Assembly: GCA_963542025.1 (NCBI GenBank)
Contig: CAUTUQ010000008.1
Location: 38,460 to 62,459 of the forward strand
DNA: 24,000 nt
Direction of reading: 5' to 3'
Source: an uncultured Atopobium sp.
GTDB lineage: Bacteria > Actinomycetota > Coriobacteriia > Coriobacteriales > Atopobiaceae
The notes under the pieces are model-generated. The model made no database searches. It was not told the origin of the DNA and saw only the letters and a program-made list of their open reading frames with translations. The position numbers were made by a program, and so were the translations under genes. This document shows positions 3,515-20,005 of the stretch, one piece after another. How positions within the stretch are numbered: position 1 is the first letter of the stretch; each line of letters starts with the position of its first letter.

Positions 3515-3542
3515 GAGCCACCTCCTTTACACACTTGCTAGA

Positions 3543-3572: not shown

Positions 3573-3619
3573 AGCAAATCCAAACTCATCGGCCTTTGGG
3601 CACGTCAGAGGACAAAAGC

Positions 3620-3636
3620 CATCTGGCGAGAAACCC
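3620..3636 (+). repeat. Copy 1 of the dispersed motif catCTGGCGAGAAACCC
   Basis: The exact 14-mer ctggcgagaaaccc is also found at 17481-17494 (+) and, as its reverse complement, at 13485-13498. The 17-mer catctggcgagaaaccc is shared with 17478-17494. Confidence 0.7.
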
Positions 3637-3661
3637 TAAGGCGTAAAAACTAAGTTAGAAC

Positions 3662-4735
3662 TTAGCTCAAAGACTTAACGTACTTGTCCAGGTCATCCTT
3701 GCTTGCAGGAGGAACAACGGAGCCAGCCTTGATCTTGTCGAGAAGACCAATAGCTGCCTTGTAGGTGTCCTCAGCCATGAGGTGGTGATCCTCAGCAATT
3801 CCGACAGCATCCTCGGAAGCGCCCAGAGAAATGGTGGTGCCACCCTTCTGGCCGTCCTTCAGGATCTTCTCGGAAATCTCAACGATAGCAACGTTGACGC
3901 GCTTAAGAGCGGAGGTCAGAACGTTCTCTGGAGCAAGATATGCCTGGTCACGGTCAACGCCGATAGCAAGCTTGTTTGCGTCCTTAGCTGCCTCAATAAC
4001 GCCGGTTCCTACGCCGCCTGCAGCGTGGAAGACAACGTCGCAACCATCGGAGTACATGGAGTTAGCAATAGCCTTGCCCTTTGCAGCATCGGAGAAGGAC
4101 TCTGCGTACTGTGCAGAAACCTCAACGTTGGTGTTGTTCTCCTTGTTTGCAAAAGCAACGCCGCCGCGGTAACCATACTCAAACTGGTCGATAAGTGCGG
4201 AAGAAATGCCGCCAACAAAGCCAACCTTGCCAGTCTTTGTGGTGCGAGCAGCAATGTAGCCAACAACAAAGGAAGGCTCCTGAGCGCGGAACATAACGCC
4301 GGTGAAGTTGGCAACCTGAGACTCGTTGCCGTTGTCGATAATGGCAAACTGGGTGTTTGGATTGTCCTTAGCAGCCTTAAGGGTTGCGTCTGCCATAGCA
4401 AAGCCAACACCCCAAACAAGGTCGGACTCAGCGTCAACAGCCTTATCAAGGTTGGTTGCGTAATCGGAATCCTGCTTGGACTCAAGGTAGCTGACATCCC
4501 AGCCGTTCTTGTCCTTGAGCTCGGTCATGCCCTCCCAAGCGGACTGGTTAAAGGACTGGTCGTTAACACCACCAGTATCGGTAACCATGGTGAGCTTCTT
4601 TTTCTTGTCACCTGATGCCTTCTGGCCGCCGTCGTCCTTCTTCTGGTTGCAGCCTGCAAGACCTGCGAGTGCTGCAAGTGCGCCAGCGCCGGTTGCGCCA
4701 GTCACAAAACTACGACGAGAAACGTTCTTGTTCAT
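3662..4735 (-). CDS. BMP-family (PnrA/TmpC/Med-like) nucleoside-binding lipoprotein, substrate-binding component of the ABC importer
   Basis: 357 aa. The N-terminus MNKNVSRRSFVTGATGAGALAALAGLAGC combines a twin-arginine-like SRRSFV motif with a lipobox LAGC. The mature part has BMP-family features (VTDTGGVNDQSFNQSAWEG, GVGFA, FVGG). RBS AAGGAG lies 8 nt upstream of the ATG. Confidence 0.9.
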   Translation of the reverse strand: MNKNVSRRSFVTGATGAGALAALAGLAGCNQKKDDGGQKASGDKKKKLTMVTDTGGVNDQSFNQSAWEGMTELKDKNGWDVSYLESKQDSDYATNLDKAVDAESDLVWGVGFAMADATLKAAKDNPNTQFAIIDNGNESQVANFTGVMFRAQEPSFVVGYIAARTTKTGKVGFVGGISSALIDQFEYGYRGGVAFANKENNTNVEVSAQYAESFSDAAKGKAIANSMYSDGCDVVFHAAGGVGTGVIEAAKDANKLAIGVDRDQAYLAPENVLTSALKRVNVAIVEISEKILKDGQKGGTTISLGASEDAVGIAEDHHLMAEDTYKAAIGLLDKIKAGSVVPPASKDDLDKYVKSLS

Positions 4736-4898: not shown

Positions 4899-5609
4899 TT
4901 AAGCAACAACAGAAAGAGCAACCTCCATCATCTGTGTGAAGCTAGTCTGACGCTCCTCAGCAGTAAGTGCTTCTCCTGTAAGAGGCAGGTCAGAGATAGT
5001 TAGCAGCGTAAGCGCATGCTTATGAGCGTGCATGGCGTTGAGATACAGGGCTGCCGACTCCATCTCAACGGCAAGAACATCCATGCTTGCCCATTTTGGA
5101 AGCGAGTTGTCTACGGTATAAAACACGTCGCTTGCCAAGATATTACCAACGCGAACGGGATAGCCCAGCTTCTCTGCACCAGCAACAGCCTTGCTCAACA
5201 GGCCAAAGTCTGCGGTAGGTGCAATGGTTCCAGGCATTCCGTACTGTGATGGATAATTAGAATCAGTGCTGGAAGACATGCCAATAACAATGTCTCTGAG
5301 CTTTACCTCAGGAGAAAGGCCGCCAGCACTACCAATACGGAGAATGTTATCAACTCCGTAGAAATTAAAGAGCTCGTAAGAATAAATACCAATGGAAGGC
5401 ATACCCATACCAGAACCCATAACGGAGACGGGCTGTCCCTTGTAGGTTCCGGTGTAGCCAAACATGTTGCGTACGGTGTTGAACTGCTCAACGTTCTCCA
5501 GGTACGTGTCTGCAAGAAGCTTTGCGCGCAGAGGATCGCCTGGCATGAGGACAGTCTTAGCAATCTGGCCCTCAACAGCAGCGTTATGGGCAGTTGGGGT
5601 AGTAGCCAT
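4899..5609 (-). CDS. deoD: Purine nucleoside phosphorylase, DeoD type
   Basis: 236 aa. [24 protein letters not shown] and [12 protein letters not shown] are hallmark PNP family-1 motifs. The ATG overlaps the deoB stop by 1 nt (TAATG). Confidence 0.92.
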
Positions 5610-6799
5610 TAGTTCTCCTTAAGAATCTCTGACAGGTGAGAAGTTCCAACACCAAGTTGCTCAACGCCAAAATAATCAAGGATTGTCTCGGCCATGTCGG
5701 CAAATGTGGTGGTTGTACCAAGGTTGGTGTTTGGCTTGACCTTTGGACCTGTGATAAGCAGTGGCACGTACTCACGAGAGTGATCAGTAGATGGCGTTAC
5801 AGGATCGCAGCCATGATCTGCGGTAATAATGAACAGGTCATCCTCACGAAGACCCTCAATAATCTGAGGAATGCGCTCGTCAAAGTAAGAAAGAGCGTTG
5901 GAGTATCCCACAGGATCGTTGCGGTGACCGTAAATCATGTCTGTATCAACAAGGTTGGTGAAGCACAGACCGTTAAAGTCTTTGCTGGTAGCCTCAATAG
6001 TTTTCTGAATTCCGTCTGCGTTGCAGGTGGTGAATTCAAACTCGGTCATACCGCGGTGAGCAAAGATGTCATAAATCTTGCCAATAGAAAGAACATCAAA
6101 GCCGTTCTCTTTGAGGCGATCAAGCATGGTTGGACCCGTTGGCTCAAGCGAGAAGTCATGACGGCGAGAAGTACGCTGGTATGGCCACTCCCCCTCAAAA
6201 GGACGGGCAATAACGCGAGCAACACCGTGCTCACCCTGCAGAATCTCGCGTGCAATACGGCAATACTCATAGAGTTTCTCGGGACTTACCACGTCCTCAT
6301 GAGCAGCAATCTGGAAAACAGAATCTGCTGAGGTATAGACAATCAGAGCACCAGTCTCTACGTGCTCTTTACCAAAGTCTCTAATAACATCGGTTCCGGA
6401 GTAAGGCTTGTTGCACAAAACCTTGCGGCCTGTCTTCTGCTCAAACTCCTCAATAACCTCCTGTGGAAAACCATCAGGATAGGTTGGGAACTTCTTTGGA
6501 GAAATGACGCCTGCCATCTCCCAGTGGCCAACGGTGGTGTCTTTACCAGCTGATTTCTCCTGCATACGAGCGTATGCACCCACAGGAGACTCAATTGGCT
6601 TCAGTTCAACGTCATACACAGTATCAAGCGCGCCATCAATATTAAGAAGGCCCAGCTTTGTCATATTTGGGATAGTAAGAACGCCACTTGTTGCACAGGC
6701 ACAAAGGGTATTGCTACCCTCGTCTCCGTATGCCGCTGCATCAGGCTCTTCGCCAATGCCAAAACTATCAAGAACAACTACAAAAACACGTTTAGGCAT
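5609..6799 (-). CDS. deoB: Phosphopentomutase
   Basis: [10 protein letters not shown] near the N-terminus, and HRNDP and TADHGCDP near the C-terminus, are typical DeoB metalloenzyme motifs. I trimmed the track ORF (start 6829) to the ATG at 6799, which has GGAGG 5 nt upstream (taggaggtagtATG). This gives 396 aa. Confidence 0.92.
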
Positions 6800-7111
6800 A
6801 CTACCTCCTAAAACGCCCGAAACAAGCATTTACGCACGATACGTACGCAAACTAACTTATGTGGACGAGTCATTACTATTCATTAAATATATTATTACAG
6901 TTACATAATACCGACGCCCAATTTAGAGAGATTTTCACGATACAACCGTTTGCAGATACTAAAATTCTGTAAACGGTACGCAGCAAATGCTTAGAAAAAT
7001 TAAGCAGGTAAAACCAATGTGGCGAGAAAATCGTTGAGCTCACCAGGGAAAAATTTAATGAATTCATTCTTTACAGACTCTAGCTGCTGTCTTATCGTTG
7101 TCCAAAGCAAG

Positions 7112-7175: not shown

Positions 7176-7206
7176 TCGGATTCTATTTTTGCTGCTAGGA
7201 GGCCTG

Positions 7207-8289
7207 ATGCTCACCAATCGAGAACAGATGATTTTCAACTGGATTAAAGAGCAGCCTTCCATTACTCAGAAGGAAATTGCAGAGCGCGCTGGTATCTCGC
7301 GTTCTTCTGTTTCGGTTCACATCTCCAACCTTACCGCAAAGGGCGCAATTTTGGGCCGCCGCTACATTTTGAGCGAGCGTCCCTACTTTATTGTGATTGG
7401 CGCTGCTAACATGGATATTGCTGGTCGCCCAGACACTTCCCTTGTGGCAGGAGATTCAAACCCTGGCAAGGTCACCATGTCCTTTGGTGGCGTTGGCAGA
7501 AATGTTGCCCACAACCTGGCTCTTCTCGACAGCGACGTTCGTCTGCTCACCGCCTTTGGCGAGGACTATCGTGCGCGCGAGCTCAAAGAAGGTTGCTTGG
7601 ACTGCGGCATTGACATCGACGCCTCTATTACCGTGCCGGGCGCTTCCACTTCCACCTACCTCTTCATCATGGATGAGCACGGTGAGATGCAGGAAGCCAT
7701 CAATGACATGCAGATTTACGAGTATGTCACCCCTGAGCGTATCGAGGAGCGCCTGGACGTCATCCAGCACGCTGCAGCTTGCGTGATTGATACCAACCTG
7801 CCTCAGCAGACCATCGAGTTCATTGCAAAGAACGTGACCTGCCCCATCTTCTGCGATCCTGTTTCTTCCATCAAGGCACAGAAGCTCAAGAGGGTCCTGG
7901 GCAGGATTCACACACTTAAGCCAAATCGCCTTGAGGCCGAGGTGCTCTCGGGCATCAAGATTACTGACGACGAGTCCCTTAAAGCAGCAGCTCAGGAGCT
8001 ACTTGCAACGGGACTTAAGCGCGTGTTTATCTCCCTTGGCGAGAAGGGCCTTCTTTGCGCTGATCACGAGAAGACCGTCCGCTTGCCGCTGCTTCCTGCA
8101 AAGCTGGTCAACATGACTGGTGCAGGAGATGCCATGATGGCGGGAGTTACCTGGGCGTATACTCAGGGCATGACACTTGAGCAGACCGGTTTGGTAGGTA
8201 TGGCTGCTTCCAGCATGGCCATTGAGGGCGAGGACACCATCAACGGTGAGCTCAACGTTGACGAGGTTATCAAGCGCGCAGGTATTTAG
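7207..8289 (+). CDS. psuK: Winged-HTH fused to a PfkB-family kinase, pseudouridine kinase-like (YeiI/PsuK type)
   Basis: The N-terminal ~55 aa (REQMIFNWIKEQPSITQKEIAERAGISRSSVSVHISNLTAKGAI) form an HTH. The remainder is PfkB-like: VIGAANMDIAG, DSNPGKV..SFGGVGRNVAHNLA, and NMTGAGDAMMAG (second PfkB signature). It lies directly upstream of psuG. Start set at ATG 7207 (AGGAGG 5 nt upstream) rather than the track TTG at 7189. Confidence 0.75.
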   Translation: MLTNREQMIFNWIKEQPSITQKEIAERAGISRSSVSVHISNLTAKGAILGRRYILSERPYFIVIGAANMDIAGRPDTSLVAGDSNPGKVTMSFGGVGRNVAHNLALLDSDVRLLTAFGEDYRARELKEGCLDCGIDIDASITVPGASTSTYLFIMDEHGEMQEAINDMQIYEYVTPERIEERLDVIQHAAACVIDTNLPQQTIEFIAKNVTCPIFCDPVSSIKAQKLKRVLGRIHTLKPNRLEAEVLSGIKITDDESLKAAAQELLATGLKRVFISLGEKGLLCADHEKTVRLPLLPAKLVNMTGAGDAMMAGVTWAYTQGMTLEQTGLVGMAASSMAIEGEDTINGELNVDEVIKRAGI

Positions 8290-8380: not shown

Positions 8381-9307
8381 ATGTCTAACCTGAAGGATTT
8401 TCTCGTTGTATCTGACGAGGTCAAAGAGGCACTTAAGCAGAACAAGCCTGTTGTAGCTCTGGAGTCCACCATCATTTCTCACGGTATGCCTTACCCACAG
8501 AACGTTGAGACCGCTCTGAAGGTTGAGCAGATTATCCGCGACAACGGTGCAATTCCTGCAACTATCGCAATTATTAACGGCCAGATGCGTGCCGGCCTTT
8601 CCGCTGACGAGATTGACTACCTGGGCAAAAAGGGCCGCGAGGTTGCTAAGGTAAGCCGCCGCGACCTCCCCGTTATCATTGCTGAGAAGAAGGACGGCGC
8701 AACTACCGTCACTACTACCATGATGATTGCTCACATGGCAGGCATCGACGTCTTTGCAACCGGTGGCATCGGCGGCGTTCACCGTGGCGCTGAGACCACC
8801 ATGGACATCTCCGCTGACCTTGAGGAGCTTGCACAGACTCCCGTTATGGTCATTTGCGCTGGTGCAAAGTCCATTCTTGACCTTGGCCTTACCCTTGAGT
8901 ACCTGGAGACTAAGGGCGTTCCTGTACTTGGTTATCAGACCGAGGAGCTTCCTGCATTCTATACTCGTAAGAGCGGCTTTAGCGTTGACTACCGTGTTGA
9001 CTCCCCTGCTGAGCTGGCAGAGATCTTTACTACCCAACAGCAGATTGGTATGAACAGCGGTCTTCTGGTTACCAACCCAATTCCTGAGCAGTACGCAATG
9101 GATAAGGACACCATCGACGCAGCTATCGAGAAGGCCCTTGCAGAGGCAGAGGCAAACGGCATCCACGGCAAGGAGTCCACTCCATTCCTGCTTGCAAAGG
9201 TAGCTGAGATCACTGGCAACAACTCCCTTGAGTCCAACATTCAGCTGGTCTTCAACAACGTTGCTCTTGGCGCAAAGGTTGCTGCTGAGGTCTGCAACCG
9301 CAAGTAA
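8381..9307 (+). CDS. psuG: Pseudouridine-5'-phosphate glycosidase
   Basis: 308 aa. VVALESTIISHGMPYPQN, ATGGIGGVHRG and VICAGAKSILD are characteristic of PsuG/YeiN (indigoidine synthase A-like family). GGAG lies 5 nt upstream of the ATG. Confidence 0.93.
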   Translation: MSNLKDFLVVSDEVKEALKQNKPVVALESTIISHGMPYPQNVETALKVEQIIRDNGAIPATIAIINGQMRAGLSADEIDYLGKKGREVAKVSRRDLPVIIAEKKDGATTVTTTMMIAHMAGIDVFATGGIGGVHRGAETTMDISADLEELAQTPVMVICAGAKSILDLGLTLEYLETKGVPVLGYQTEELPAFYTRKSGFSVDYRVDSPAELAEIFTTQQQIGMNSGLLVTNPIPEQYAMDKDTIDAAIEKALAEAEANGIHGKESTPFLLAKVAEITGNNSLESNIQLVFNNVALGAKVAAEVCNRK

Positions 9308-9395
9308 GAGCGCGTCCGCGCTGCGTAAGCACCACGTAAGTACACGTGCGAACGCCGCGTAAGCATCGCATTTCTTTTGGCCCCTACGTCGTTTT

Positions 9396-9439
9396 GAACT
9401 GCCTCCTATTTCTTGAACATAAGAAATGGGAGGTAATTC
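9396..9439 (+). terminator. Hairpin copy 1 (19 bp stem), possible psuG terminator or RNA element
   Basis: gaactgcctcctatttctt-gaacat-aagaaatgggaggtaattc has one C/A mismatch and two G.U-type positions when read as plus-strand RNA. It lies 89 nt after the psuG stop. Only an interrupted T-run follows (atatgcgatttt). Confidence 0.4.
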
Positions 9440-9668
9440 ATATGCGATTTTGTAGCGTGTTAGCGTAGGCTTTTAGGCCTGGCGCACAAAAGAGCGCAGC
9501 TTTGGTAGGTTCTGCTGAAGAGTCGACATGTTCTTAATCAAGATAGCTAGGCAGTTAGGCGGTCGTACTACCTGATATGCATCTCTATGCATAAACTCCA
9601 TCTAATATGCTTGAAAATGAATAGCGAAATATAAAAAATCTAACTATAGGTAAATTCCGCTTCTAAGG

Positions 9669-9799
9669 AACACACCTATGTCAGATAATCTGCACAATTG
9701 CGGCCATATTACACATCAAATGAAGATAATCTGCACGTTTTAGCTATTTTCGGCGTCATGTATACGTCTTTTTGACAGATTATCTGTCATAGGTGTGTT
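9669..9799. repeat. 131 bp element bounded by 24 bp inverted repeats (MITE-like or long RNA stem)
   Basis: The left arm aacacacctatgtcagataatctg (9669-9692) matches the reverse complement of the right arm cagattatctgtcataggtgtgtt (9776-9799) at 23/24 positions. The element contains three (c)AGATaATCT(g) palindromes (9682-9692, 9724-9732, 9774-9788). Confidence 0.55.
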
Positions 9800-9801
9800 T
9801 T

Positions 9802-9845
9802 GAACTGCTTTCTATTTCTCGTGTCCAAGAAATGGGAGGCAGTTC
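9802..9845 (+). other. Hairpin copy 2 (18 bp stem), paralogous to 9396-9439
   Basis: gaactgctttctatttct-cgtgtcca-agaaatgggaggcagttc pairs fully as plus-strand RNA if three T:G positions are G.U wobbles. The minus-strand transcript would carry C/A mismatches instead. It shares the 5' flank gttttgaactg with copy 1. Confidence 0.45.
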
Positions 9846-10074
9846 ATTTGACGTGGGGGCTTTTCTATCTTGCGGCAGCTTGACCGCGAGTTGACCGCTG
9901 GTTGGCCGCAGTCCGATCACAACCTGATCGCAGCCCGAAATCGTTCAAGAAAATTGTCTCAAAAAGTGGACAAAAGTCCTTATTTTTATTTTTGCTAGCA
10001 GGTACAATTACTCAAACTTAAGCCGAAACTGTCCTGTAAAGAGGACTTACGAAACAAGAACAGCGAGGTCTCGT

Positions 10075-10806
10075 GTGAACGTCCTAACCTACCTTGATAG
10101 TCTTGATTCTGACGTTCGCAAGAAGATCATCAAATGGGCTTCTCGCGTTCCTGCTAATCGTCTTTCTCACTGTAGGCAGATTCGTCTTAATTCCGGGCAG
10201 ACTCTTGTCCACATGCTGGACCGCGTTGATAACGTGTACATTCTGTGCCGCGGTACCGTGCGTACTACGTCGCATAATTCCGCAGGCAGCACGTATGTTA
10301 TTGACGAGTATCGTGCGCCCGTTGCTTTTGGTGAGATGGAAGTTATCAGCGAGAGCCCGTTTTACCTGGGATCGCTCACCGCAACTTCCGGCTGCGAGTT
10401 TATTTCGGTTCCACGCGAGGACTACCTGCAGTGGATTCGTTCGGACCCTGAGGCACTTCTCACCCGCTCACGCTGGATTATCAAAAATCTGACGCGTCAG
10501 TCCGGCTACGAGCGCAGCCTGCTGACCTGGAGCGGAACCAAGCGCCTGATGTACATGCTTAGCGAGCTGACGCGCGATCAGATTCATCGCGGCGTTGTTG
10601 AGTGGCCGTTTACGGTACGTCTGACCAGGCAAGAGCTGGCAGACAAGATTGGTACCAGCACAAAGACTGTTGCCCGCGGCATCGACGAGCTTAAGGAGAG
10701 GGGCATGGTTTCTGTTCAGCACGGCAAGATTGTCATTACCGAGAGGCAGTTCCAGCGTCTCGACGACGCAATGAAACACGAGGGAGAATCCCACCTTCTG
10801 GACTAA
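10075..10806 (+). CDS. Crp/Fnr-family transcriptional regulator (cNMP-binding-like domain plus C-terminal HTH), without an FNR-type Cys cluster
   Basis: 243 aa. The beta-roll region contains FGEMEVI, and the C-terminal HTH is LTRQELADKIGTSTKTVARGIDELKERGMV. GTG start with GAGG 6 nt upstream. Confidence 0.85.
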   Translation: MNVLTYLDSLDSDVRKKIIKWASRVPANRLSHCRQIRLNSGQTLVHMLDRVDNVYILCRGTVRTTSHNSAGSTYVIDEYRAPVAFGEMEVISESPFYLGSLTATSGCEFISVPREDYLQWIRSDPEALLTRSRWIIKNLTRQSGYERSLLTWSGTKRLMYMLSELTRDQIHRGVVEWPFTVRLTRQELADKIGTSTKTVARGIDELKERGMVSVQHGKIVITERQFQRLDDAMKHEGESHLLD

Positions 10807-10971
10807 TCTCTGTACCTGGCACAACACTTGGGCAAGACCGTTCTTCTCGCCCCGAGCGTTGCGCATCTCACCTGGCATGACGCGCTTCTCGCGCCACGCC
10901 GCATCTGGAACGACCGACGTACCCGTCGTAATCACAACCCTGTTTTTGCAGGATAAACGTAAGGAGCACTA

Positions 10972-12474
10972 ATGAGCGAGTTCATGGACATCATCACTTC
11001 CGACAACCTCTCGTACAAGCAGAAGGTTCTGCACCTGGCTCAGGCTGCCGAGAACTCCGAGCATCCTATCAAGACGACCGCTGAGTTTGACCGTCTTTTT
11101 GCAGCTCACGCACTTGACGACATGTGTGAGGGCAACGCTCCTTACCGTCCTCGCTACATCTGCCCTGACTACCAGGTATTTGCTCAGAACGGCTCCGAGT
11201 TTTTGCGCTTTGACAAGCCAGAGACCCTTGATGACCTGCTCTGGGGCCTCGCCGCTCTTTACGACAACGTTCCTTCAGTCACCAGCCGCCCTGTCTACGT
11301 TGGCCAGCTGGACAAGATTATTGATCCGTTCCTAGAGGGCATGACTGACGCAGAGATTAAACCTCGTCTGCGCCGCTTCCTGAACCACATCGACCGCACC
11401 GTTGCGAGCGGTTACTGCCACGCAAACATTGGTCCAGAGGACACTCGCGCAGGTAGACTGCTGCTTGAGGTTGACCGCGAGCTCATGAACGCTGTTCCAA
11501 ACTTCACCCTCAAGTACGACCCAGAGGTCACTTCCGACGAGTTCATGCGCCTGGCAGTCAAGACCACCATGGTCTGCTCCAACCCTGCTTTTGCTAACCA
11601 CCGCATCCACAAAGAGACCTACCCTGGCGAGTACACCGTCGTAAGCTGCTACAACGTCCTTCCTATGGGCGGCGGCGCTTACACTTTGAGCCGCGTGCTT
11701 CTCCCTGGCCTGGCAAAGCTTGCAACCAACGTTGACGACTTCATGAACAACCTGCTGCCAACCGCAACCGGCGAGGTTCTGAACTTCATGAATGAGCGCG
11801 TCCGCTTTATTGTTGAGGATTCCAACTTCTTTGAGACCAGCTTCCTGGCTAAAGAAGGCCTCATTTCTCGCGAGCGTTTCTGCGGCATGTTTGGTGTTGC
11901 TGGCATGAGCGAGTGCGTCGCTGAGCTGCTGCACCTTGATAGCAGCCGCACCTACGGCAAGGATGACGAGGCTAACGAGCTAGCCGACCAGATCATGGTC
12001 AAGATTGCCGACCAGGTCAACAGCTTTGACGCCGTCTACTCCGAGGTCTTTGGCGGCCGCTTCACCCTACACGCACAGGCTGGTTTCTCCGACCAGCAGG
12101 GCGTTACCCCTGGTGTCCGCATCAAGGTTGGCGACGAACCCGCAAACCTCTACGACCACATTCGCCACAGCGCACGCATGCACCGCTTCTTCAACAGCGG
12201 CGTCTCCGACATCTTCCCAGCTGAGCCAACTGCTGAGCGCAACCCAGACGCTGTCGTTGACGTGGTCAAGGCCGCATTCTCCATCGACGACAAGTACCTC
12301 TCGTTCTATAGCTCCGAGGGTGACCTGGTCCGCATCACAGGCTTCTTGGCTAAGCGTTCCGAGATGAAGAAGTTCCAGTCCGGAGACGTTGTTCTTCAGG
12401 ACACCGCTCACGACGGCCTGGGCAACTTCACCGCTAACCACCTTGCCGACCGCAAGGTTCGCATGAGCGACTAG
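10972..12474 (+). CDS. yjjI: YjjI-family (DUF3029) short glycyl radical enzyme, substrate unknown
   Basis: 500 aa. The C-terminal DLVRITGFLAKR matches the glycyl-radical fingerprint R-[VI]-x-G-[FWY] (Gly457, nt 12340-12342). Length and overall sequence recall E. coli YjjI (about 500 aa) rather than the ~800 aa PFL-type enzymes. A YjjW-type activase gene follows 19 nt downstream. RBS AAGGAG lies 5 nt upstream. Confidence 0.8.
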   Translation: MSEFMDIITSDNLSYKQKVLHLAQAAENSEHPIKTTAEFDRLFAAHALDDMCEGNAPYRPRYICPDYQVFAQNGSEFLRFDKPETLDDLLWGLAALYDNVPSVTSRPVYVGQLDKIIDPFLEGMTDAEIKPRLRRFLNHIDRTVASGYCHANIGPEDTRAGRLLLEVDRELMNAVPNFTLKYDPEVTSDEFMRLAVKTTMVCSNPAFANHRIHKETYPGEYTVVSCYNVLPMGGGAYTLSRVLLPGLAKLATNVDDFMNNLLPTATGEVLNFMNERVRFIVEDSNFFETSFLAKEGLISRERFCGMFGVAGMSECVAELLHLDSSRTYGKDDEANELADQIMVKIADQVNSFDAVYSEVFGGRFTLHAQAGFSDQQGVTPGVRIKVGDEPANLYDHIRHSARMHRFFNSGVSDIFPAEPTAERNPDAVVDVVKAAFSIDDKYLSFYSSEGDLVRITGFLAKRSEMKKFQSGDVVLQDTAHDGLGNFTANHLADRKVRMSD

Positions 12475-12493
12475 CGAGAAGAGCTGCGCAATC

Positions 12494-13453
12494 GTGACCT
12501 TCACTGCAACAGAAACAACTTTGGGAGCAGCACGCGCCGAAGCGTCGCGTCCCACAACCGCGAGCACCGCGGCAACGAGCGACGCGGCAACCAATTCAGG
12601 AGCAGCACATCCTACCGGGTGTGTTGCTCCTGTCAATAAGATCATTCCCTTCTCGCTGGTAGATGGCCCAGGAAGCCGAACCGCCGTCTTCCTCCAAGGC
12701 TGCAACATTCGCTGTGCCTACTGCCACAACCCCGAGACCCAGGTAGAGTGCATCTCCTGCCAGGCGTGCGTCAAACCATGCCCAGCTCACGCCCTGTCTG
12801 TGGCTGACGGAAAAGTTGTGTGGGACAACTCCATCTGCATCAACTGCGACAACTGCATCAAGGTGTGCCAGCACAAGTCCACGCCAAAGATTGAGCTGCT
12901 CAGCGCGCGCGAGGTGGCCGACCGCTGCATTTCCAACATGCCGTTCATCCGCGGAATCACCACGTCAGGCGGCGAATGCATGCTCCGTCCCGACTTCCTC
13001 TACGAACTCTTCAGCTACTGCAACGCGGCCGGCCTGAGCTGCCTCATCGACTCAAACGGCACCATCGACTTCACCGAGTACCGCGACCTGCTGGCCCTCT
13101 CGAGCGGCGTCATGCTTGACGTTAAAGCCTGGGACGATCAGTGGTTTGAGCATCTGACCGGCGAAAATGGCGTCACGGTTCGCAAAAATCTTGCATTTTT
13201 GGCCGAGCAAAACAAGCTGGAAGAGGTTCGCGTCATCGTGACCGAAGGCTGGAACGACGCCGAAGCCGCAGTTGACGGCATTGCCGCAACCCTTGGCGAG
13301 AAGGTCGGTCACACGCGCATTCGCCTCATGAAGTTCAGGCGTTTTGGCGTGCGCGGACCGATGGAGAACTCTCCTTCTCCAAGCGACGAGCGCATGCAAG
13401 CGATTGAGTCGCAGGCTCGCAACCTGGGCTTTGGCGAGGTTGTCGTCAGCTAG
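12494..13453 (+). CDS. yjjW: Glycyl-radical enzyme activating protein (radical SAM, YjjW type) with a ferredoxin-like insert
   Basis: GCNIRCAYCHNPE is the CX3CX2C radical SAM motif (C70/C74/C77). Two CX2CX2CX3C motifs follow (CISCQACVKPC and CINCDNCIKVC), then GGECMLRPDF. Start is uncertain: the only in-frame options upstream of the conserved core are GTG 12494 and TTG 12521, leaving a ~35-45 aa Ala/Thr-rich extension. Confidence 0.88.
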   Translation: MTFTATETTLGAARAEASRPTTASTAATSDAATNSGAAHPTGCVAPVNKIIPFSLVDGPGSRTAVFLQGCNIRCAYCHNPETQVECISCQACVKPCPAHALSVADGKVVWDNSICINCDNCIKVCQHKSTPKIELLSAREVADRCISNMPFIRGITTSGGECMLRPDFLYELFSYCNAAGLSCLIDSNGTIDFTEYRDLLALSSGVMLDVKAWDDQWFEHLTGENGVTVRKNLAFLAEQNKLEEVRVIVTEGWNDAEAAVDGIAATLGEKVGHTRIRLMKFRRFGVRGPMENSPSPSDERMQAIESQARNLGFGEVVVS

Positions 13454-13526: not shown

Positions 13527-13566
13527 AACGACCTCGCAGCACATGCCACGAGGTCGTTTTCATTTT
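13527..13566 (+). terminator. Rho-independent terminator candidate for yjjI-yjjW
   Basis: aacgacctcg-(12 nt loop)-cgaggtcgtt is followed by ttcatttta. The stem is a perfect 10 bp. Confidence 0.6.
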
Positions 13567-13591: not shown

Positions 13592-13680
13592 AAACTCCAG
13601 TTCAGTGGACTACCGGCCTGAAAACCCCAGTTCAGTGGACTATCGGTCCAGTAAACTCCAGTTCAGCGAGTTACTCGGTG
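13592..13680. repeat. Tandem repeat of about 30 bp x3 (aaaMYccagttcagtggactaYcgg...) in the yjjW/deoC convergent spacer
   Basis: The units are 13592-13620, 13621-13652 and 13653-13680. The third, more degenerate unit runs into the deoC stop codon and its last codons. Confidence 0.65.
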
Positions 13681-14312
13681 ACGATAGCGATTCCGCTGGA
13701 GCAGCCCAGGCGGTCGGCGCCCGCTGCGACCATTGCCTCAGCATCAGCCTTATTGTGGATGCCGCCAGCAGCCTTGACCTTGCAAGTGTCGCCGACAGTC
13801 TGCTTCATCAGAGCGACATCGTGAACAGTTGCGCCGCCGGTGCTAAAGCCAGTACTTGTCTTGACAAACGCAGCTCCGGCAGCCATGCAATCCTTACAGG
13901 CACGAACGATCTGCTCGTCATCAAGCAGGCAGCACTCCAGGATTACCTTAACGGGCACGGTACCAGCAGCCTCAACAACAGCCTTGATATCAGCGATTAC
14001 GTAGTCGTCGTCGCCCGCGACCAGGTGGCCGCCGTTGATGACCATGTCAATCTCGGTGGTGCCGTCGGCAACACTCTGCTTGGCCTCGGCGACCTTAGCT
14101 GCAGTTGAAGCAGCGCCCAGAGGGAAACCGATGCAGGAAGTAATGCCAACTCCGGAGCCCTCGAGCTCGGCGTGGGCCAGGGAAACCCAGCAAGAATTGA
14201 TAGCGACGGTTGCAAACTTATACTGCTTTGCCTCGGCGCAAAGTTTCTTGATGTCCTCAGCGGTTGCGTTTTGCTTCAAGTTTGTATGGTCGATAAGGCC
14301 GTTGACTTCCAC
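13671..14312 (-). CDS. deoC: Deoxyribose-phosphate aldolase
   Basis: IDHTNLK, FVKTSTGF (Schiff-base Lys region) and VKAAGGI are DeoC hallmarks. I trimmed the track ORF (14414) to GTG at 14312, which has GAAGGAG 6 nt upstream. This gives 213 aa, the usual DeoC length. Confidence 0.9.
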   Translation of the reverse strand: MEVNGLIDHTNLKQNATAEDIKKLCAEAKQYKFATVAINSCWVSLAHAELEGSGVGITSCIGFPLGAASTAAKVAEAKQSVADGTTEIDMVINGGHLVAGDDDYVIADIKAVVEAAGTVPVKVILECCLLDDEQIVRACKDCMAAGAAFVKTSTGFSTGGATVHDVALMKQTVGDTCKVKAAGGIHNKADAEAMVAAGADRLGCSSGIAIVTE

Positions 14313-14467
14313 GATTTTCTCCTTCTGACTGTACGTTATGAGTGGTTTGTGCCCTCTATTGTACGGCAAGCACACCGCAAAAGATGCGGCTACCTGGTTT
14401 TTGCTATCCAGCATAACTGTCTGGCTGAAATACTTAGATTAGCTAACTGGTATAACTACCTGCCGAG

Positions 14468-15496
14468 TTACCTGGCTTTGAATAGTCGCATCCACAGTGC
14501 TTGTTGACGATCTTCAAGATCAGAAATAGTTGTGTCACGTGCGACTATTCCTGTAGACTCTCGAATCTGACGAACCAAACCTTGAACACTTGAGAAACTT
14601 TTTAACATCTCTCCAGAAACCGAAAAATGTGGACATTGCACGCCCGTTACCAGCTCGTTTTCTCGATCCAAATCTCGCATGACTCTTTGGCCGCCAGCGT
14701 GCGTTACCGCTGGATCAGAATCTAGCAGCACCGTCGCTTGCTTCTTTCTTTTGTCCTTGAGCTGAATGGTTAAGTCAGGAATTCGAGTGATTTTCTCGCC
14801 ATATCGATTTTCCAGCTCGATTGGCCTATTGAGTTCGACAGTTCCTAGGTTAAATCCACCAAGGTTATACGGGAGGCACAATAACAGCGCAAGCGAAGCT
14901 TCTCGGGGCGACCGAGCTTTCTCTACGATGTGCTGAAGTGCTCGTTTAGCTGGGATGATGCCGCGCTTTCTTCCTTGCGTGGAAAGAAACTTTGCAATCG
15001 CAGCGCGATTTGTTAGAGGGCCATTTTGGCGTTGCGAAACTCCACCATGGCCATCCTGATTCAAAAAATAATCGGAACACAGGGCACTACCTGCAAGGAT
15101 TGTTCCAATAAAATCAAGCTTTGAAGCAATCTGCAAATAAGTGAATTCCGGAGAGGTAATAAATCCCTTTAAGTCAGCACCTATAGGTAGAAGCGATGAT
15201 GGCGGAACCTTTGAATTACAGATATGAAGCGCAACATTTTCTCTTGTAGACGCGGAATTCAAATCACGGATTAGCAGGTCAACCTTGCTATTAGGCTCCT
15301 GGTGAAGACGCACACCTTGTATCTCTGGTAGGTGTCCATAGTAGACGGCAAGCTCTCGTTCCATGGCTGCACCAGGTGTAGACTCTGGAACAAGTGGCGC
15401 TCTGACCATACCATTTGCTGCCGCCGACGAATCAAATGGCCTAGAGGAACTCATCAATAAATTAAACGCTGAAAAGTACGAAAGACAGTAATCCAT
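14468..15496 (-). CDS. Hypothetical protein; the C-terminal half resembles DUF559/Vsr-like (PD-(D/E)xK fold) endonuclease-domain proteins
   Basis: 342 aa, with visibly lower GC than its neighbours. Pattern SPREASLALLL..P....G......(RIPDL)....(VLLDSD)...H......D.DRENEL...G parallels the DUF559 layout S-x-x-E...R-x-D...E-x-D-G...H...D-x-x-R...L. The acidic core is altered, so it may be inactive. RBS GAAGGAG lies 4 nt upstream of ATG 15496. Confidence 0.5.
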   Translation of the reverse strand: MDYCLSYFSAFNLLMSSSRPFDSSAAANGMVRAPLVPESTPGAAMERELAVYYGHLPEIQGVRLHQEPNSKVDLLIRDLNSASTRENVALHICNSKVPPSSLLPIGADLKGFITSPEFTYLQIASKLDFIGTILAGSALCSDYFLNQDGHGGVSQRQNGPLTNRAAIAKFLSTQGRKRGIIPAKRALQHIVEKARSPREASLALLLCLPYNLGGFNLGTVELNRPIELENRYGEKITRIPDLTIQLKDKRKKQATVLLDSDPAVTHAGGQRVMRDLDRENELVTGVQCPHFSVSGEMLKSFSSVQGLVRQIRESTGIVARDTTISDLEDRQQALWMRLFKAR

Positions 15497-16063: not shown

Positions 16064-17278
16064 TTAGAACTCGACAGGAAGGTCGAAGTAGACGCACTTA
16101 AGCAGCTGCTCCATCTCCTCCTGGGTAGGCTTGCGTGGGTTGGAGAGGGTGCAAGCGTCCTCGATAGCAAGGCGAGCAACCTCTGGAGCCTTCTCGAAGA
16201 ACTCCTTCTCGTCGATGATGGAGGTCTCGGACTTGGTTCCGCCCTCGCCGTAGTTCTTGATGCCCTGTGGGATGTCAAGAGCGTCGTTGATGTCGCGAAT
16301 CTTCTGGACGAGAGCCTCTACCAGCTCGTCCTCGGTGTTGCCCTCGAGGTGCAGGATCTCCTTAGCAATGAATGCATAGCGAGTCTTTGCGCGCTCGTCA
16401 CGAGCGTTGAACTGAATGACCTTGCCCAGGTACATAGCGTTTGCGCAACCGTGAATGATGTGACCACCAGAGAATGCTGCGCCGGTCTTGTGAGCCATGG
16501 AGTGAACAATGCCCAGAAGGCCAGAGGAGAATGCGATACCAGCGATGCACTGTGCGTCATGCATGTGCTGACGAGCCTCTTTGTCACCCTTGTAGGACTT
16601 TGGCAGCCACTCAACAATCTCGCGGATTGCATGGAGAGCGTCGCCGTCGGTGTACATAGAAGCAACGGTAGAAACATATGCCTCGATAGCATGGGTCAGT
16701 GCGTCCATACCAGTGTGAGCAACAAGCTTAACAGGCATACCATACGTAAGCTCAGGGTCAACAATAGCGACGTCAGGGGTAATCTGGAAGTCAGCGATTG
16801 GGTACTTAACACCCTTCTGGTAATCAGTAATGATGGAGAATGCGGTTACCTCAGTTGCGGTACCGGAAGTAGAAGAAATTGCGCAGAAGTGAGCCTTGGT
16901 GCGGAGCTCAGGAAGACCAAAGACCTTGCACATGTCCTCAAAAGTGGTCTCTGGATACTCGTACTTAATCCACATAGCCTTAGCTGCGTCGATTGGAGAG
17001 CCGCCGCCGATAGCAATAATCCAGTCTGGCTGGAACTCGGACATCTTTGCAGCGCCGCTCATAACGGTCTCGACGGAAGGATCGGACTCGACGCCCTCAA
17101 TGTGAGCAACCTCAAAACCTGCGGACTTGAGATCGTTCTCGATGTCATCAAGGAAGCCGCCGCGGCGCATGGAGCTGCCGCCGGAAACGATAACTGCCCT
17201 CTTACCCTTGAGGTTCTTAACCTCGTGACGAGCGCCCTCGCCAAAATACAGATCGCGTGGATTTGTAAAACGTCCCAT
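16064..17278 (-). CDS. Iron-containing (group III) alcohol dehydrogenase
   Basis: 404 aa. AIGGGSPIDAAKAMW is the Fe-ADH signature, and His-rich metal ligand regions are present (HTGMDALTHAIEAY, HSMAHKTG, GHIIHG). RBS AAGGAG lies 6 nt upstream. Confidence 0.92.
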   Translation of the reverse strand: MGRFTNPRDLYFGEGARHEVKNLKGKRAVIVSGGSSMRRGGFLDDIENDLKSAGFEVAHIEGVESDPSVETVMSGAAKMSEFQPDWIIAIGGGSPIDAAKAMWIKYEYPETTFEDMCKVFGLPELRTKAHFCAISSTSGTATEVTAFSIITDYQKGVKYPIADFQITPDVAIVDPELTYGMPVKLVAHTGMDALTHAIEAYVSTVASMYTDGDALHAIREIVEWLPKSYKGDKEARQHMHDAQCIAGIAFSSGLLGIVHSMAHKTGAAFSGGHIIHGCANAMYLGKVIQFNARDERAKTRYAFIAKEILHLEGNTEDELVEALVQKIRDINDALDIPQGIKNYGEGGTKSETSIIDEKEFFEKAPEVARLAIEDACTLSNPRKPTQEEMEQLLKCVYFDLPVEF

Positions 17279-17625: not shown

Positions 17626-18837
17626 GTGGCGTTTGACCCAGTAAAAGAAGACTACCAGCGGCTTATCCTCCGCTTTGCTCGCACGCAAGTTGGCGACGAG
17701 GACAGTATTGCCACGCTGATGAAGGACTTCAACTGGCGATTCTCCAACGACCGCAATTCCCTCCCCCAAACCGACGAAGACCGCGCATTCAATCTAGTTG
17801 CTCAGGCGGCCGAAATTGTTGATTATCGCCTGCCTTTTGTCGAAGAATCTCAGGCGCAGACCCTTATCGACCAGGGAAAACGCCTCCTCAACCAGGCAAT
17901 TCAGCTGGACCCCAACTGTTTTGACGCCCAGCGCATGCTCCACGCCTCAAATAGCAGGCTTTTTGACGTCTACTACCAGTTCCTTGTGGAGAAGCTCCCC
18001 CAGGTAGAAGCCGCATGCTATCAGAAGGCGCAAGAGTCCTCACAGGGGCTCCCCGCTGAGCAGGCAGAACTTGCCCAGAGGCTGGCCATCAACCCCTATA
18101 AGCGCTGGTTGGCAACGCTTTCTTCTCGCGCGCTTATCTGCGGCCGCAACAAAGACGCCATCGCATATGGCGAGAAACTCCTGGAGCTTGACGCTGCAGA
18201 TGCGGCCGATGCTCGTTTTACGCTTGCACTCGCATACGCAAAACTCGAGGACGAGGACGCTCTCGACAACCTCATGGACCAGTACCGCAAGCTTGATCCG
18301 CCTCGCGGGGCAGATGACCCGTGGATTTTGCTGGCCCGCCTGGCTATTCACTTCAAAAAGCGTGAGCTGGTTGAGGCAGAACACTATCTTGACCTGCTGA
18401 TTGAGCGCTATCCCGAGGCAACGCTTTGCTGTTTTGTGCAGAAGGATTTGCCCGAGGGAGAGTTCTCGCGCCTTAACGTGCTCCCCTATTCTGAGGACGA
18501 GCTCATCATTGCCATTGCAGAGGCAACGGTGCTGCTGCAAGAAGGAAATGACCTGATAGGACGCGGTGTTCTTGGTCGTTGGCTTGCAGATCAGGTTAGG
18601 GCGAGAGACCCAAAGACCGTTGAACTTGCAGAAAAAGAGCTGCAAATGCAGGCAAACGCCTTGTTCGCTTCTACAGATTCTTTCCCTGGTGGATCCGACT
18701 TCCCCGACGACCCGGTCGGCTCTGACCCCGCTGGCTCTGGCGGCCCCAGCTTCCCCGGAGGTCCCGCCGGCCCGCAACCACACGGACCGTATATCGACGG
18801 GCCAAATAATCCACACTCAGGTGGTGATGCAGAGTGA
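17626..18837 (+). CDS. Hypothetical alpha-helical (TPR-like) protein with a Pro/Gly-rich acidic C-terminal tail
   Basis: 403 aa. GTG start with GAAAGGA 5 nt upstream. Codon usage is coherent over 1.2 kb. The tail is SFPGGSDFPDDPVGSDPAGSGGPSFPGGPAGPQPHGPYIDGPNNPH. No enzyme motif was recognised. Confidence 0.7.
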   Translation: MAFDPVKEDYQRLILRFARTQVGDEDSIATLMKDFNWRFSNDRNSLPQTDEDRAFNLVAQAAEIVDYRLPFVEESQAQTLIDQGKRLLNQAIQLDPNCFDAQRMLHASNSRLFDVYYQFLVEKLPQVEAACYQKAQESSQGLPAEQAELAQRLAINPYKRWLATLSSRALICGRNKDAIAYGEKLLELDAADAADARFTLALAYAKLEDEDALDNLMDQYRKLDPPRGADDPWILLARLAIHFKKRELVEAEHYLDLLIERYPEATLCCFVQKDLPEGEFSRLNVLPYSEDELIIAIAEATVLLQEGNDLIGRGVLGRWLADQVRARDPKTVELAEKELQMQANALFASTDSFPGGSDFPDDPVGSDPAGSGGPSFPGGPAGPQPHGPYIDGPNNPHSGGDAE

Positions 18838-19862
18838 TTAAGCATTCCGCTAACGATATGGTCAGCGAGCAGGTAGACCGCCTAGTCACAAAGTGTGCCC
18901 AAGAAAAGAACATCGTCTCTGAAGCTGCTCTTTATGAGTTGAAACTTGCGGTAGAAGCTTCTCCTGAAGACTTTATTGCTGACGAAGAGGAAAAAGCTTT
19001 TGCTCAATACGTCAACGTCATTGGTAAGTATCAGGCTGGAATTACTAAAGAAATTGATTCTGATGCGGACTTCTTCTCAAGCCGTATGGATCTGCTTAAC
19101 TTCTTGCATAATCAGATGACAAATATTACTGAAAACCCAGCTCTTAACAGCACAAGTATCAATCTTGAAGCACAGAGAATCCTGGCGCAAATCTCCAACA
19201 ATCATCCTGCAGCCATCCTTAACGACCTGCTTGACCTGCAAAAAGAATTCGACCCTATCTTTAGGCCAAAACTAGAACAAGCAAAGCAAGAGCAAGGTGA
19301 TGCCTGGAGCTGCGCTGAGGCACGACCACTTTTGCGCCTCTACGCACAGATTGCCCAGGTAGCAACCGATTGCGCTTGCTTCAAGCTCTCCAAAAAAGCC
19401 TGCGAAGATCTCTTGTTCTTCTCGCCAACTGATTTGCTGGGTGCGCGTTTTACCTTGGCATATGTGCTTGCTCGCCTGGAAGACGAAGAAGGGCTCCATA
19501 AGCTGGACGAGAGCTGCGGATATCAGTCCAATGCTTGGATGCGTCTGGCGTTTACGCTGCTGTTCTTCAAGTTGAATCGCATGCCCGCGGCAAAGCGAGC
19601 GCTCAAAGGCTTTGTCAACCTAGGCGAGGGAGCGGCGTATGCGCTGCTCAGGCCATCTTTTGTTGATCTCTACATTCCGTGCAGAATCAACTTTACACCT
19701 GATACGTTTGCCGAGAACGTTATCGCAGTTCATGAGGCCGAAGCGATTATCGCCGACGTGCCGGAATTTATTTCGTGGGCAGAGTCGGTGCCTGGCGTGA
19801 CTCAGAGCGCTCGCGACTACGCATTTAAGACTGGGCTGGACTGGTGGGAAAACGAAGAATAG
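18834..19862 (+). CDS. Hypothetical alpha-helical protein, paralog of the upstream gene
   Basis: 342 aa. The GTG overlaps the upstream TGA (GTGA). It shares blocks with the upstream protein: ARFTLAYVLARLEDEEGLHKL vs ARFTLALAYAKLEDEDALDNL, AWMRLAFTLLFFK vs PWILLARLAIHFK, and a later A(V/I)xEAEA(I/T) block. It lacks the Pro/Gly tail. Confidence 0.7.
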   Translation: MIKHSANDMVSEQVDRLVTKCAQEKNIVSEAALYELKLAVEASPEDFIADEEEKAFAQYVNVIGKYQAGITKEIDSDADFFSSRMDLLNFLHNQMTNITENPALNSTSINLEAQRILAQISNNHPAAILNDLLDLQKEFDPIFRPKLEQAKQEQGDAWSCAEARPLLRLYAQIAQVATDCACFKLSKKACEDLLFFSPTDLLGARFTLAYVLARLEDEEGLHKLDESCGYQSNAWMRLAFTLLFFKLNRMPAAKRALKGFVNLGEGAAYALLRPSFVDLYIPCRINFTPDTFAENVIAVHEAEAIIADVPEFISWAESVPGVTQSARDYAFKTGLDWWENEE

Positions 19863-19930: not shown

Positions 19931-20005
19931 GTCCCCATCGTCTAACGGTTAGGACATCGCCCTTTCAAGGCGGCAATACGGGTTCGATTCCCGTTGGGGG
20001 CACCA
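19931..20005 (+). tRNA. tRNA-Glu (anticodon UUC), CCA encoded
   Basis: Hand-folded cloverleaf. Acceptor gtcccca/tgggggc; D arm gtct..ggac; anticodon stem tcgcc/ggcgg with loop cTTTCAa (anticodon TTC); T arm acggg-ttcgatt-cccgt; then A-CCA. Confidence 0.93.

Follow-up and report, generated by a model that had tools for sequence, protein, structure and literature searches.

Which reaction is catalysed by YjjI, a small, oxygen-sensitive glycyl radical enzyme found in Escherichia coli and Salmonella as well as in many anaerobes of the gut and mouth, and why do its genes lie so often among genes for the use of nucleosides? Enzymes of this class are responsible for important anaerobic reactions of bacteria in the gut and mouth, and whenever a function has been newly assigned to one of them, a new pathway has come to light; recent examples concern the metabolism of choline, hydroxyproline, isethionate and anhydroglucitol. 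Here, we focus on a yjjI locus in 24,000 nucleotides of DNA from an uncultured Atopobium species (Coriobacteriia; contig CAUTUQ010000008.1, positions 38,460 to 62,459), a stretch termed the window throughout. In a preliminary description of the window, yjjI, the gene for its activase YjjW and a regulatory gene had been placed within a nucleoside-catabolism locus. We report that YjjI descends from the anaerobic (class III) ribonucleotide reductase (RNR) NrdD and has lost the residues of the reductive half-reaction, which is new, and that its conserved setting in nucleoside loci suggests that nucleoside metabolism includes an anaerobic step yet to be described.

The preliminary description had stated that the family has no assigned substrate, and full-text literature searches (of papers other than those available by subscription only) likewise found no function assigned to YjjI. 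Nothing relevant came from searches for papers on glycyl radical enzymes in connection with deoC, nucleosides, uridine phosphorylase or pseudouridine. A review of glycyl radical enzymes from June 2026 recognizes two divisions of the superfamily, the anaerobic RNRs and the PFL-like proteins, and makes no mention of YjjI. The sole functional proposal found is a guess of 'nitrogen metabolism' from a 2011 co-expression study, made on the basis of FNR-type motifs; it was rejected here as specific evidence, being based solely on co-expression with FNR-dependent genes.

The YjjI–YjjW module and its conserved residues

Positions 10075–13453 of the window hold a complete glycyl radical module, consisting of a Crp-like regulator, YjjI and the YjjW activase. 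Its three open reading frames (ORFs), confirmed at the coordinates given in the preliminary description, lie on the forward strand and encode proteins of 243, 500 and 319 amino acids. The module sits between a psuK-like gene with psuG on one side and deoC on the other; deoB, deoD and a Bmp/PnrA-type ABC importer are found further upstream. Some 20 genome or metagenome-assembled genome loci labelled Atopobium or Atopobiaceae encode a YjjI that is at least 92% identical to that of the window, and mostly 98–100%.

Both family assignments exceed their curated cut-offs in profile searches. YjjI (10972–12474) matches TIGR04040 over its full length (residues 3–497) with 605.9 bits against a cut-off of 498.3, and PF11230 with 707.5 bits; YjjW (12494–13453) matches TIGR04041 with 386 bits against a cut-off of 250.2. 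The two are bona fide members of the YjjI and YjjW families. The YjjI family is small and tight: just 435 cluster representatives out of 1.8 billion were found at E ≤0.001, many of which are fragments. Pfam scans of the window protein gave no match to PF02901 or PF01228, and by its sequence motifs YjjI is not a PFL-like eliminase.

The residues that would carry the radical are found where the preliminary description had placed them. Near the C-terminus (...DLVRITGFLAKRSE...), the glycyl radical motif R-[IV]-[TS]-G-[YF] is present as RITGF, with the putative radical site Gly457 encoded at 12340–12342. The putative thiyl-radical cysteine, Cys226, lies in VVSCYN (codon at 11647–11649), within an S-C-Y-N motif. 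In an alignment of 36 YjjI sequences, including representatives at 37–43% identity, Gly457 is invariant (36/36), and Cys226 (36/36) is the only invariant cysteine. Two further candidates named alongside it in the preliminary description, C304 (2/36) and C315 (19/36), did not stand and were rejected as catalytic residues, together with C202 (21/36), a candidate of our own, for lack of conservation. In all, 26 residues are invariant across these diverse sequences; the glycine and the cysteine apart, they include Glu53, Arg61, Tyr62, His150, Asn228, Arg241, His367, Gln369 and Arg383. The three arginines in this list would suit a phosphate.

YjjW has the motifs of a radical S-adenosylmethionine (SAM) enzyme that had been described for it. 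A CX3CX2C motif (C70, C74 and C77; 12701–12724), the predicted site of the SAM-cleaving [4Fe-4S] cluster, is accompanied by matches to Radical_SAM and Fer4_12, and two ferredoxin-type CX2CX2CX3C motifs follow (C86–C96 and C115–C125; 12749–12868), with matches to Fer4_7, Fer4_9 and Fer4_10. Rather than resembling NrdG, YjjW is an activase of the large type with two ferredoxin clusters, by which dehydratases and lyases are activated, and its best matches outside the family are activases of the HypD and PflC type. The gap of 19 nucleotides described between yjjI and yjjW holds for the GTG start, which adds an extension of 44 amino acids; the gap thus depends on the choice of start codon. This N-terminal extension (12494–12625) is of low complexity, rich in Ala, Thr and Ser, and found in Atopobium; YjjW of other genera is without it. 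Between Atopobium strains it carries in-frame insertions and deletions of up to 30 amino acids, giving a total length of 294–324, and because its length varies in this way the true start codon is uncertain.

A relative of NrdD without its reductive half

The structure of YjjI was predicted with AlphaFold2 from 59 sequences, resulting in a confident model (mean predicted local distance difference test, pLDDT, 90.3; predicted template modelling score, pTM, 0.91). In the model, Cys226 lies at the tip of a β-hairpin, at the turn between strands 221–224 and 228–231, and Gly457 at the turn between strands 452–455 and 458–461. Two such finger loops are typical of the glycyl radical superfamily (PMC4493059), and the predicted hairpin tips correspond to this arrangement. 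The preliminary description had suggested a search for the glycyl radical barrel in a predicted structure; Foldseek comparison of the model with the Protein Data Bank (PDB) placed class III RNRs at the top (Prevotella copri 8p23, E 3.5e-16, TM-score 0.74), followed by PflD, the hydroxyproline and propanediol dehydratases, and PFL. By sequence, a search of the PDB with a YjjI profile gave no meaningful match to any solved structure.

Profile–profile alignment nonetheless connects the two families. When a shallow YjjI alignment was compared by hhalign with single or closely related NrdD sequences, the probability of homology was merely 1–2%; with the input broadened to 36 YjjI sequences and 14 NrdD sequences (from E. 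coli, phages and Neobacillus), YjjI residues 7–486 align with E. coli NrdD residues 118–711 at a probability of 97.1% (E 5.4e-11). Cys226 pairs with NrdD Cys384 of the finger loop (PMGCRSF) and Gly457 with the radical glycine Gly681 (RITGF against RVCGY), so the alignment of Gly457 with a radical glycine, on which the preliminary description had staked its case, was obtained. The two proteins share a ten-stranded barrel (TM-score about 0.7), homology across the whole catalytic core and, in corresponding places, a cysteine on the finger loop and a C-terminal glycine loop of the form R-[VI]-x-G-[YF].

The same alignment reveals what YjjI has lost. In NrdD, the reductive half-reaction is carried by Cys175 and a methionine of the finger loop (PMC4493059). 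Cys175 is paired in YjjI with Tyr62 (codon at 11155–11157), which is invariant in 36/36 sequences, and the finger-loop Met382 with Val224, a position that is Val or Ala in YjjI. The ATP-cone region of NrdD (residues 1–117) has no counterpart in YjjI, the specificity region is absent, and the C-terminal zinc ribbon with its four cysteines falls in a gap of 28 residues. The Pfam NRDD model gives YjjI 21.0 bits, below its gathering score of 26.2. The two proteins differ also in their activases, that of YjjI being of the two-ferredoxin type, and in their genomic context, with YjjI linked to nucleoside catabolism and NrdD to the synthesis of deoxynucleoside triphosphates. YjjI is a stripped-down relative of NrdD with an NrdD-derived core, and it is not itself a ribonucleotide reductase, because three defining features of NrdD were looked for and are missing. 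In Neobacillus sp. WH10, a canonical nrdD–nrdG pair (locus L117, 5051–7404) lies about 2.6 kb upstream of a cluster of crp-like, yjjI, yjjW and nupG-like genes, and a true anaerobic RNR and YjjI are thus both kept in one genome.

Linkage to nucleoside genes across lineages

If the setting of yjjI in Atopobium is informative, it should recur elsewhere. One genome per species was scanned, resulting in at least 597 stretches, confirmed by tblastn, that encode YjjI relatives. The best 80 of these loci were examined with 10-kb flanks and collapsed into 41 lineages in which YjjI is less than 85% identical, the window and E. coli being counted. At least one gene for nucleoside uptake or cleavage lies within 10 kb of yjjI in 29 of the 41 lineages. 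Targeted counts are highest for Bmp (22 lineages), followed by Udp and DeoB (11 each), DeoD and PsuG (nine each), Cdd (seven), DeoC (six) and Pdp (three). A label-free clustering of all neighbouring ORFs, with annotation added afterwards, gave a matching picture, in which the top families are all nucleoside-related: YjjW adjoins YjjI in 39/41 lineages; the ABC ATPase, permeases and Bmp binding protein occur in 22–27, phosphorylases of the PNP/UDP type in 19, the Crp-like regulator in 18 and phosphopentomutase in 13; PsuK/PsuG and a YitT-type membrane protein each occur in 9–10, a GntR/FCD regulator in nine, a PF00756 esterase in eight, and DeoC and cytidine deaminase in 6–7 each. As an internal control, no housekeeping family was found in more than five lineages. 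The enrichment of nucleoside genes that the preliminary description had anticipated is thus borne out.

With backgrounds set generously at 1–3% per 20-kb neighbourhood, binomial tails range from 3e-6 for DeoC to 4e-23 for Bmp; these figures treat the lineages as more independent than they are, since synteny is shared among those that are related. The arrangement itself varies: the importer is found on either side, upstream or downstream, a Crp-like or a GntR-type regulator may be present, and the gene that directly abuts the yjjI–yjjW pair may be psuG, udp or deoB. The lineages belong to Actinomycetota, Bacillota and Pseudomonadota, together with contigs labelled Spirochaetota and Elusimicrobiota. 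The strongest argument for linkage comes from the transporters, since three unrelated nucleoside transporter families are found beside yjjI. The Bmp-ABC importer is the neighbour in most lineages; a NupC-type transporter is near yjjI in Edwardsiella, and also immediately upstream in a genome with a YjjI 65% identical to that of E. coli; and a NupG-type nucleoside:H+ symporter directly follows yjjW in two Neobacillus species. At about 40% identity, two lineages still have yjjI–yjjW beside a nucleoside hydrolase, a phosphorylase of the purine nucleoside phosphorylase (PNP) type, a PfkB kinase and Bmp-ABC.

It could be argued that this linkage is positional and not functional, and that the true anaerobic substrate of YjjI is an unrelated one, for instance in the metabolism of nitrate or nitrogen, as the 2011 study proposed, or is a different sugar phosphate. 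Several lineages have yjjI–yjjW with no nucleoside genes nearby, L119 carries major facilitator superfamily and GDPD genes instead, and in E. coli the expression of yjjI co-clusters with that of the nar genes. The co-expression is explained by shared FNR control, however, and a positional account must accommodate at least seven gene orders, five phyla, three transporter families and a binomial P for Bmp below 1e-20 under the generous 3% background; we consider it quite unlikely.

A second alternative shifts attention from the sugar to the base. There is a pyrimidine tilt in these neighbourhoods, as deoD never occurs in a lineage without a gene specific for pyrimidines (udp, pdp/deoA, cdd or psuG), and ten lineages have udp without deoD. 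YjjI might then act on a pyrimidine base or a metabolite derived from it, such as the uracil set free when uridine, cytidine or pseudouridine is cleaved, in an oxygen-independent breakdown of pyrimidines. In L118, yjjI–yjjW is followed by genes resembling those for dihydropyrimidine dehydrogenase and dihydropyrimidinase and by an M20 amidohydrolase gene, and the nitrogen-metabolism role guessed in 2011 would fit. Against this, NrdD ancestry indicates sugar chemistry, genes for the handling of ribose (deoB, PfkB kinases and deoC) recur alongside, pyrimidine genes are in any case often numerous in generic nucleoside clusters, and the reductive pyrimidine pathway needs no radical enzyme. Action on the base appears improbable.

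Two sets of neighbours may be recorded here in their own right. A gene for a PF00756 'putative esterase' directly follows yjjW in eight Bacillota lineages (for example, L040 12275–13306); in L118, the esterase gene (12386–13204) is followed by a LarA-like gene and by the genes of reductive pyrimidine-catabolism type. In L086 (195–2206) and L120 (7449–8973), a gene pair for an inosine–uridine nucleoside hydrolase and a member of the ADP-ribosylglycohydrolase family lies beside yjjI–yjjW and Bmp-ABC.

The deoC gene and a reductive alternative

The adjacency of yjjI and deoC in E. coli, stated in the preliminary description, is confirmed: in strain K-12, yjjW–yjjI (b4379–b4380) and deoCABD are divergently transcribed, and the start codons of yjjI and deoC are 257 bp apart. 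The E. coli pair belongs to the same two families as that of the window, with YjjI 39% identical, and likewise adjoins deoC, whereas it differs in its divergent orientation and in having no adjoining Crp-like regulator, psuKG or Bmp importer. Across lineages, linkage is stronger to nucleoside import and to cleavage of the glycosidic bond than to deoC itself.

Such adjacency first suggests a reductive route to deoxyribose phosphate. YjjI would be an RNR-like reductase with formate as reductant, which makes the 2-deoxy form of a ribosyl substrate other than a triphosphate (a ribonucleoside, ribose 1-phosphate or ribose 5-phosphate), and DeoB and DeoC would convert the product to glyceraldehyde 3-phosphate and acetaldehyde. 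NrdD is the nearest relative in both fold and sequence. deoC is adjacent in E. coli, Edwardsiella, Atopobium, several Coriobacteriia and Bacillota, and its presence in 6/41 lineages compares with about 0.4 expected. An iron-type alcohol dehydrogenase gene lies near deoC in Coriobacteriia; in the window it is found on the reverse strand (16064–17278; Fe-ADH and ADH_Fe_C domains), where its product is a possible sink for the acetaldehyde released by DeoC, its membership of the module being uncertain. It occurs within 10 kb of yjjI in five lineages, namely four Coriobacteriia and one Bacillota with a weak match of 91 bits (L035). By our own stoichiometry, ribose phosphate could be fermented by this route in redox balance, with ethanol, acetate and CO2 as products. 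The active site, however, argues otherwise: a reductase would have to work with an invariant Tyr in place of Cys175, with Val or Ala in place of the finger-loop Met and with no second conserved cysteine. deoC is, moreover, a rarer neighbour than the transporters and phosphorylases. We regard the reductive route as unlikely, and a redox-neutral elimination is favoured over it.

Control of expression

The 243-residue regulator upstream of yjjI (10075–10806, forward strand) had been described as Crp/Fnr-like, and it matches PF00027 (cNMP_binding, 44.5 bits) and PF13545 (HTH_Crp_2, 44.4 bits), both above Pfam thresholds. It has no Fnr-type cysteine cluster, judged by the E. coli FNR pattern; its sole cysteines, at positions 33, 58 and 107, are not clustered. 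A homologous regulator lies directly upstream of yjjI in 18 of the 41 lineages. Neither CRP boxes (TGTGA-N6-TCACA) nor FNR boxes (TTGAT-N4-ATCAA) are enriched within the window, and therefore no operator can be assigned to the Crp-like regulator.

In E. coli K-12, control can be read in part from the DNA. A perfect palindrome of the DeoR operator is found 386 bp inside the yjjI ORF (L001, 8665–8680), and another copy, which deviates from it at one position, is situated 45 bp upstream of deoC (9264–9279), 599 bp from the first; the yjjI promoter region is thus bracketed by operators on either side. The two deo operators form a repression loop. Chromatin immunoprecipitation sequencing of E. coli CRP gave peaks within yjjI and in the gap between yjjI and deoC, and chromatin immunoprecipitation of FNR identified a site upstream of yjjI, which is counted in the FNR regulon. 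During anaerobiosis in Yersinia intermedia, expression of yjjI is 4.3-fold and that of yjjW 2.1-fold higher. Regulation of E. coli yjjI appears to involve FNR, CRP and possibly DeoR.

This pattern of expression bears on a further explanation, namely that YjjI is a relic, decayed or without catalytic activity, of an anaerobic RNR, as a shortened NrdD-like protein without regulatory and zinc domains might be. A relic would hardly be induced by anaerobiosis, keep a dedicated activase in 39/41 lineages, show 53–76% identity between Actinomycetota and Bacillota, or retain its 26 invariant residues with the radical glycine and cysteine among them. It is highly improbable that YjjI has decayed in this way.

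A proposed radical elimination on a ribosyl substrate

We propose that the module is an anaerobic accessory to a locus for nucleoside uptake and catabolism, in which YjjI carries out a redox-neutral radical elimination on a ribosyl substrate, and we give this reading a probability of about 0.5. The cautious suggestion made for the window at the outset, that the enzyme acts anaerobically on a nucleoside-derived metabolite, is supported on the four counts on which it could have failed (the family match, the aligned glycine, the neighbourhood enrichment and the position of yjjI in E. coli); we infer the chemistry. The two parts of the proposal differ in strength. The substrate is probably a ribosyl compound derived from imported nucleosides, while elimination is put forward more tentatively, at somewhat less than even odds.

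Class I RNR mutants without the bottom-face cysteines carry out the first half-reaction only. By analogy, an RNR-type enzyme that lacks its bottom-face cysteine should perform this first half-reaction alone, with abstraction of the 3-hydrogen and loss of the 2-substituent. As YjjI is built on an NrdD-derived barrel, attack at C3 of ribose with loss of the C2 substituent would be its ancestral chemistry; since Cys226 is the only conserved cysteine, and Cys175 and the finger-loop Met are gone, the reaction likely stops at a redox-neutral 1,2-elimination.

In the proposed sequence of events, YjjW, with one SAM cluster and two ferredoxin-type clusters, would abstract a hydrogen atom from Gly457 of YjjI. 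A thiyl radical would then take a hydrogen from a C–H that adjoins a hydroxyl group on a nucleoside-derived ribosyl compound, candidates being a ribose phosphate, a nucleoside or a nucleoside monophosphate. A 1,2-elimination of the dehydratase, lyase or isomerase type would follow, and return of hydrogen from the thiol of Cys226 would give a 2-deoxy-3-keto-ribosyl or similar product. Downstream enzymes could split this product into C3 and C2 units; more speculatively, this might be done by a ketoreductase followed by DeoC, or by a C–C hydrolase such as the esterase-family protein encoded after yjjW.

The genes nearby bear on the choice of substrate. Because enzymes for purines, pyrimidines and pseudouridine co-occur around a YjjI that is near-invariant across phyla, a product shared by them, for instance ribose 5-phosphate or ribose 1-phosphate, is attractive. 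The minimal clusters, composed of a transporter, yjjI and yjjW, favour a nucleoside or nucleoside monophosphate. A still more specific version, in which YjjI as an NrdD descendant without the reducing half is a radical ribosyl 2,3-dehydratase or lyase on a nucleoside-derived sugar, and opens a new anaerobic route by which pentoses from imported nucleosides are split to C3 and C2 units, is possible and, taken whole, doubtful. Candidate sugars would be a ribose phosphate or a nucleoside with an enzyme-resistant glycosidic bond, such as a modified nucleoside.

Chemistry of this kind has precedents on the other side of the superfamily. The glycyl-radical 1,2-eliminases (glycerol and propanediol dehydratases, CutC and HypD) abstract a hydrogen adjoining a hydroxyl group, lose the neighbouring leaving group and return the hydrogen, as proposed for YjjI, and their activases share the architecture of YjjW; they belong to another branch, however, and have a conserved Glu two residues past the cysteine that is missing from YjjI. 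E. coli YbiW and PflD, former orphans, are glycyl-radical C–O lyases that act on the cyclic sugar phosphates 1,5-anhydroglucitol-6-phosphate and 1,5-anhydromannitol-6-phosphate with no net redox change, their products passing to an aldolase (PMC13450708). PflD is among the structural matches of YjjI; both lyases are PFL-like proteins of about 800 amino acids with C-x-E, whereas YjjI has 500, is NrdD-like and has C-Y-N.

Several observations weigh against the elimination we propose. The C-x-E motif, which lies on the Cys loop of PFL-like glycyl radical enzymes (PMC13450708) and is found in the known eliminases and isomerases, is replaced in YjjI by C-Y-N. The pairing of Tyr62 with Cys175 adjoins an alignment gap of two residues. 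Nucleoside clusters are common, and with shared synteny the 41 lineages are not independent events. Finally, about 12 of the 41 have no nucleoside genes nearby, five of them with full flanks, and neither do Proteus, L119, L121 and L122; L029, L039, L069 and L079 are likewise exceptions.

NrdD ancestry, retention of the radical-initiating half only and linkage to nucleoside genes across phyla together make the YjjI problem directly testable, as they yield a short list of substrates and a prediction, which is elimination and not reduction. If the proposal is true, it would add a new step to nucleoside catabolism and provide a natural example of repurposed ribonucleotide reductase chemistry. On the dehydratase or lyase version, the glycyl radical enzymes would comprise three functional divisions, with YjjI as the third next to RNRs and PFL-like proteins, and a function would be given to what we believe is the last E. 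coli orphan of the class.

Other features of the window

The nucleoside genes around the module are well supported, with one qualification. The deoC gene for deoxyribose-phosphate aldolase (13671–14414; TIGR00126, 251.8 bits against a cut-off of 117.3), deoB for phosphopentomutase (5609–6829; NF003766, 520.7 against 256) and deoD for purine nucleoside phosphorylase (4899–5609; NF004489, 320.1 against 230), all on the reverse strand, each exceed the curated cut-off. On the same strand, the nucleoside importer (2–4735; PF02608 Bmp, BPD_transp_2 and ABC_tran) consists of a binding protein (3662–4735) that is Bmp/PnrA-like, with 271.4 bits, an ATPase (1985–3514) and two permeases (786–1988 and 2–832), the last of which leaves the window. 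Of the psuK–psuG pair described upstream of the module, psuG (8381–9307, forward strand) stands as a member of the pseudouridine-5'-phosphate glycosidase family (PF04227 Indigoidine_A, 461.9 bits), whereas psuK is less well supported. The product of the latter gene (7189–8289, forward strand) is a PfkB kinase that scores below the cut-offs of NF007355 (247.6 bits; cut-off 540) and NF007416 (256.9 bits), matches a model for YeiI-like kinases with a helix-turn-helix (HTH) domain equally well, and carries an N-terminal winged HTH (HTH_24/MarR domains); because of the low scores and this HTH, it is termed PsuK-like and not taken as a proven PsuK.

An Rfam scan of the locus gave no riboswitch. A consensus scan gave a terminator-like GC-rich hairpin with a 14-bp stem (13527–13558, reverse strand) in the gap that separates yjjW from the convergent deoC. 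The spacer between psuG and the regulator gene (767 bp) contains a 54-nucleotide direct repeat, 80% identical (9391–9444 and 9797–9850), each copy of which forms a hairpin; between the two lies a pair of 24-nucleotide inverted repeats, 96% complementary (9669–9692 and 9776–9799). Across Atopobium strains, this spacer ranges from about 150 to 770 bp, and its repeats look like the remnant of a small mobile element.

Beyond deoC, an ORF of 342 amino acids (14468–15496), on the same strand and 53 bp upstream of it, is found only in Atopobium loci and has no Pfam or NCBIfam match. Two forward-strand ORFs of 403 and 342 amino acids (17626–19862), which overlap by 4 nucleotides and match no family, have conserved counterparts in two Coriobacteriaceae loci (L023 and L024); the product of the first has a Gly/Pro-rich tail. 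A tRNA-Glu(UUC) gene follows at 19931–20005, beyond which, to position 24000, GC content falls from about 50% to 31–39%. This low-GC stretch encodes, on the reverse strand, a phage holin (20010–20405; PF05105) and a 790-residue protein with peptidoglycan-binding and Rv2525c-like glycoside-hydrolase domains (21229–23601), and is probably a prophage lysis cassette or an island integrated beside the tRNA gene.

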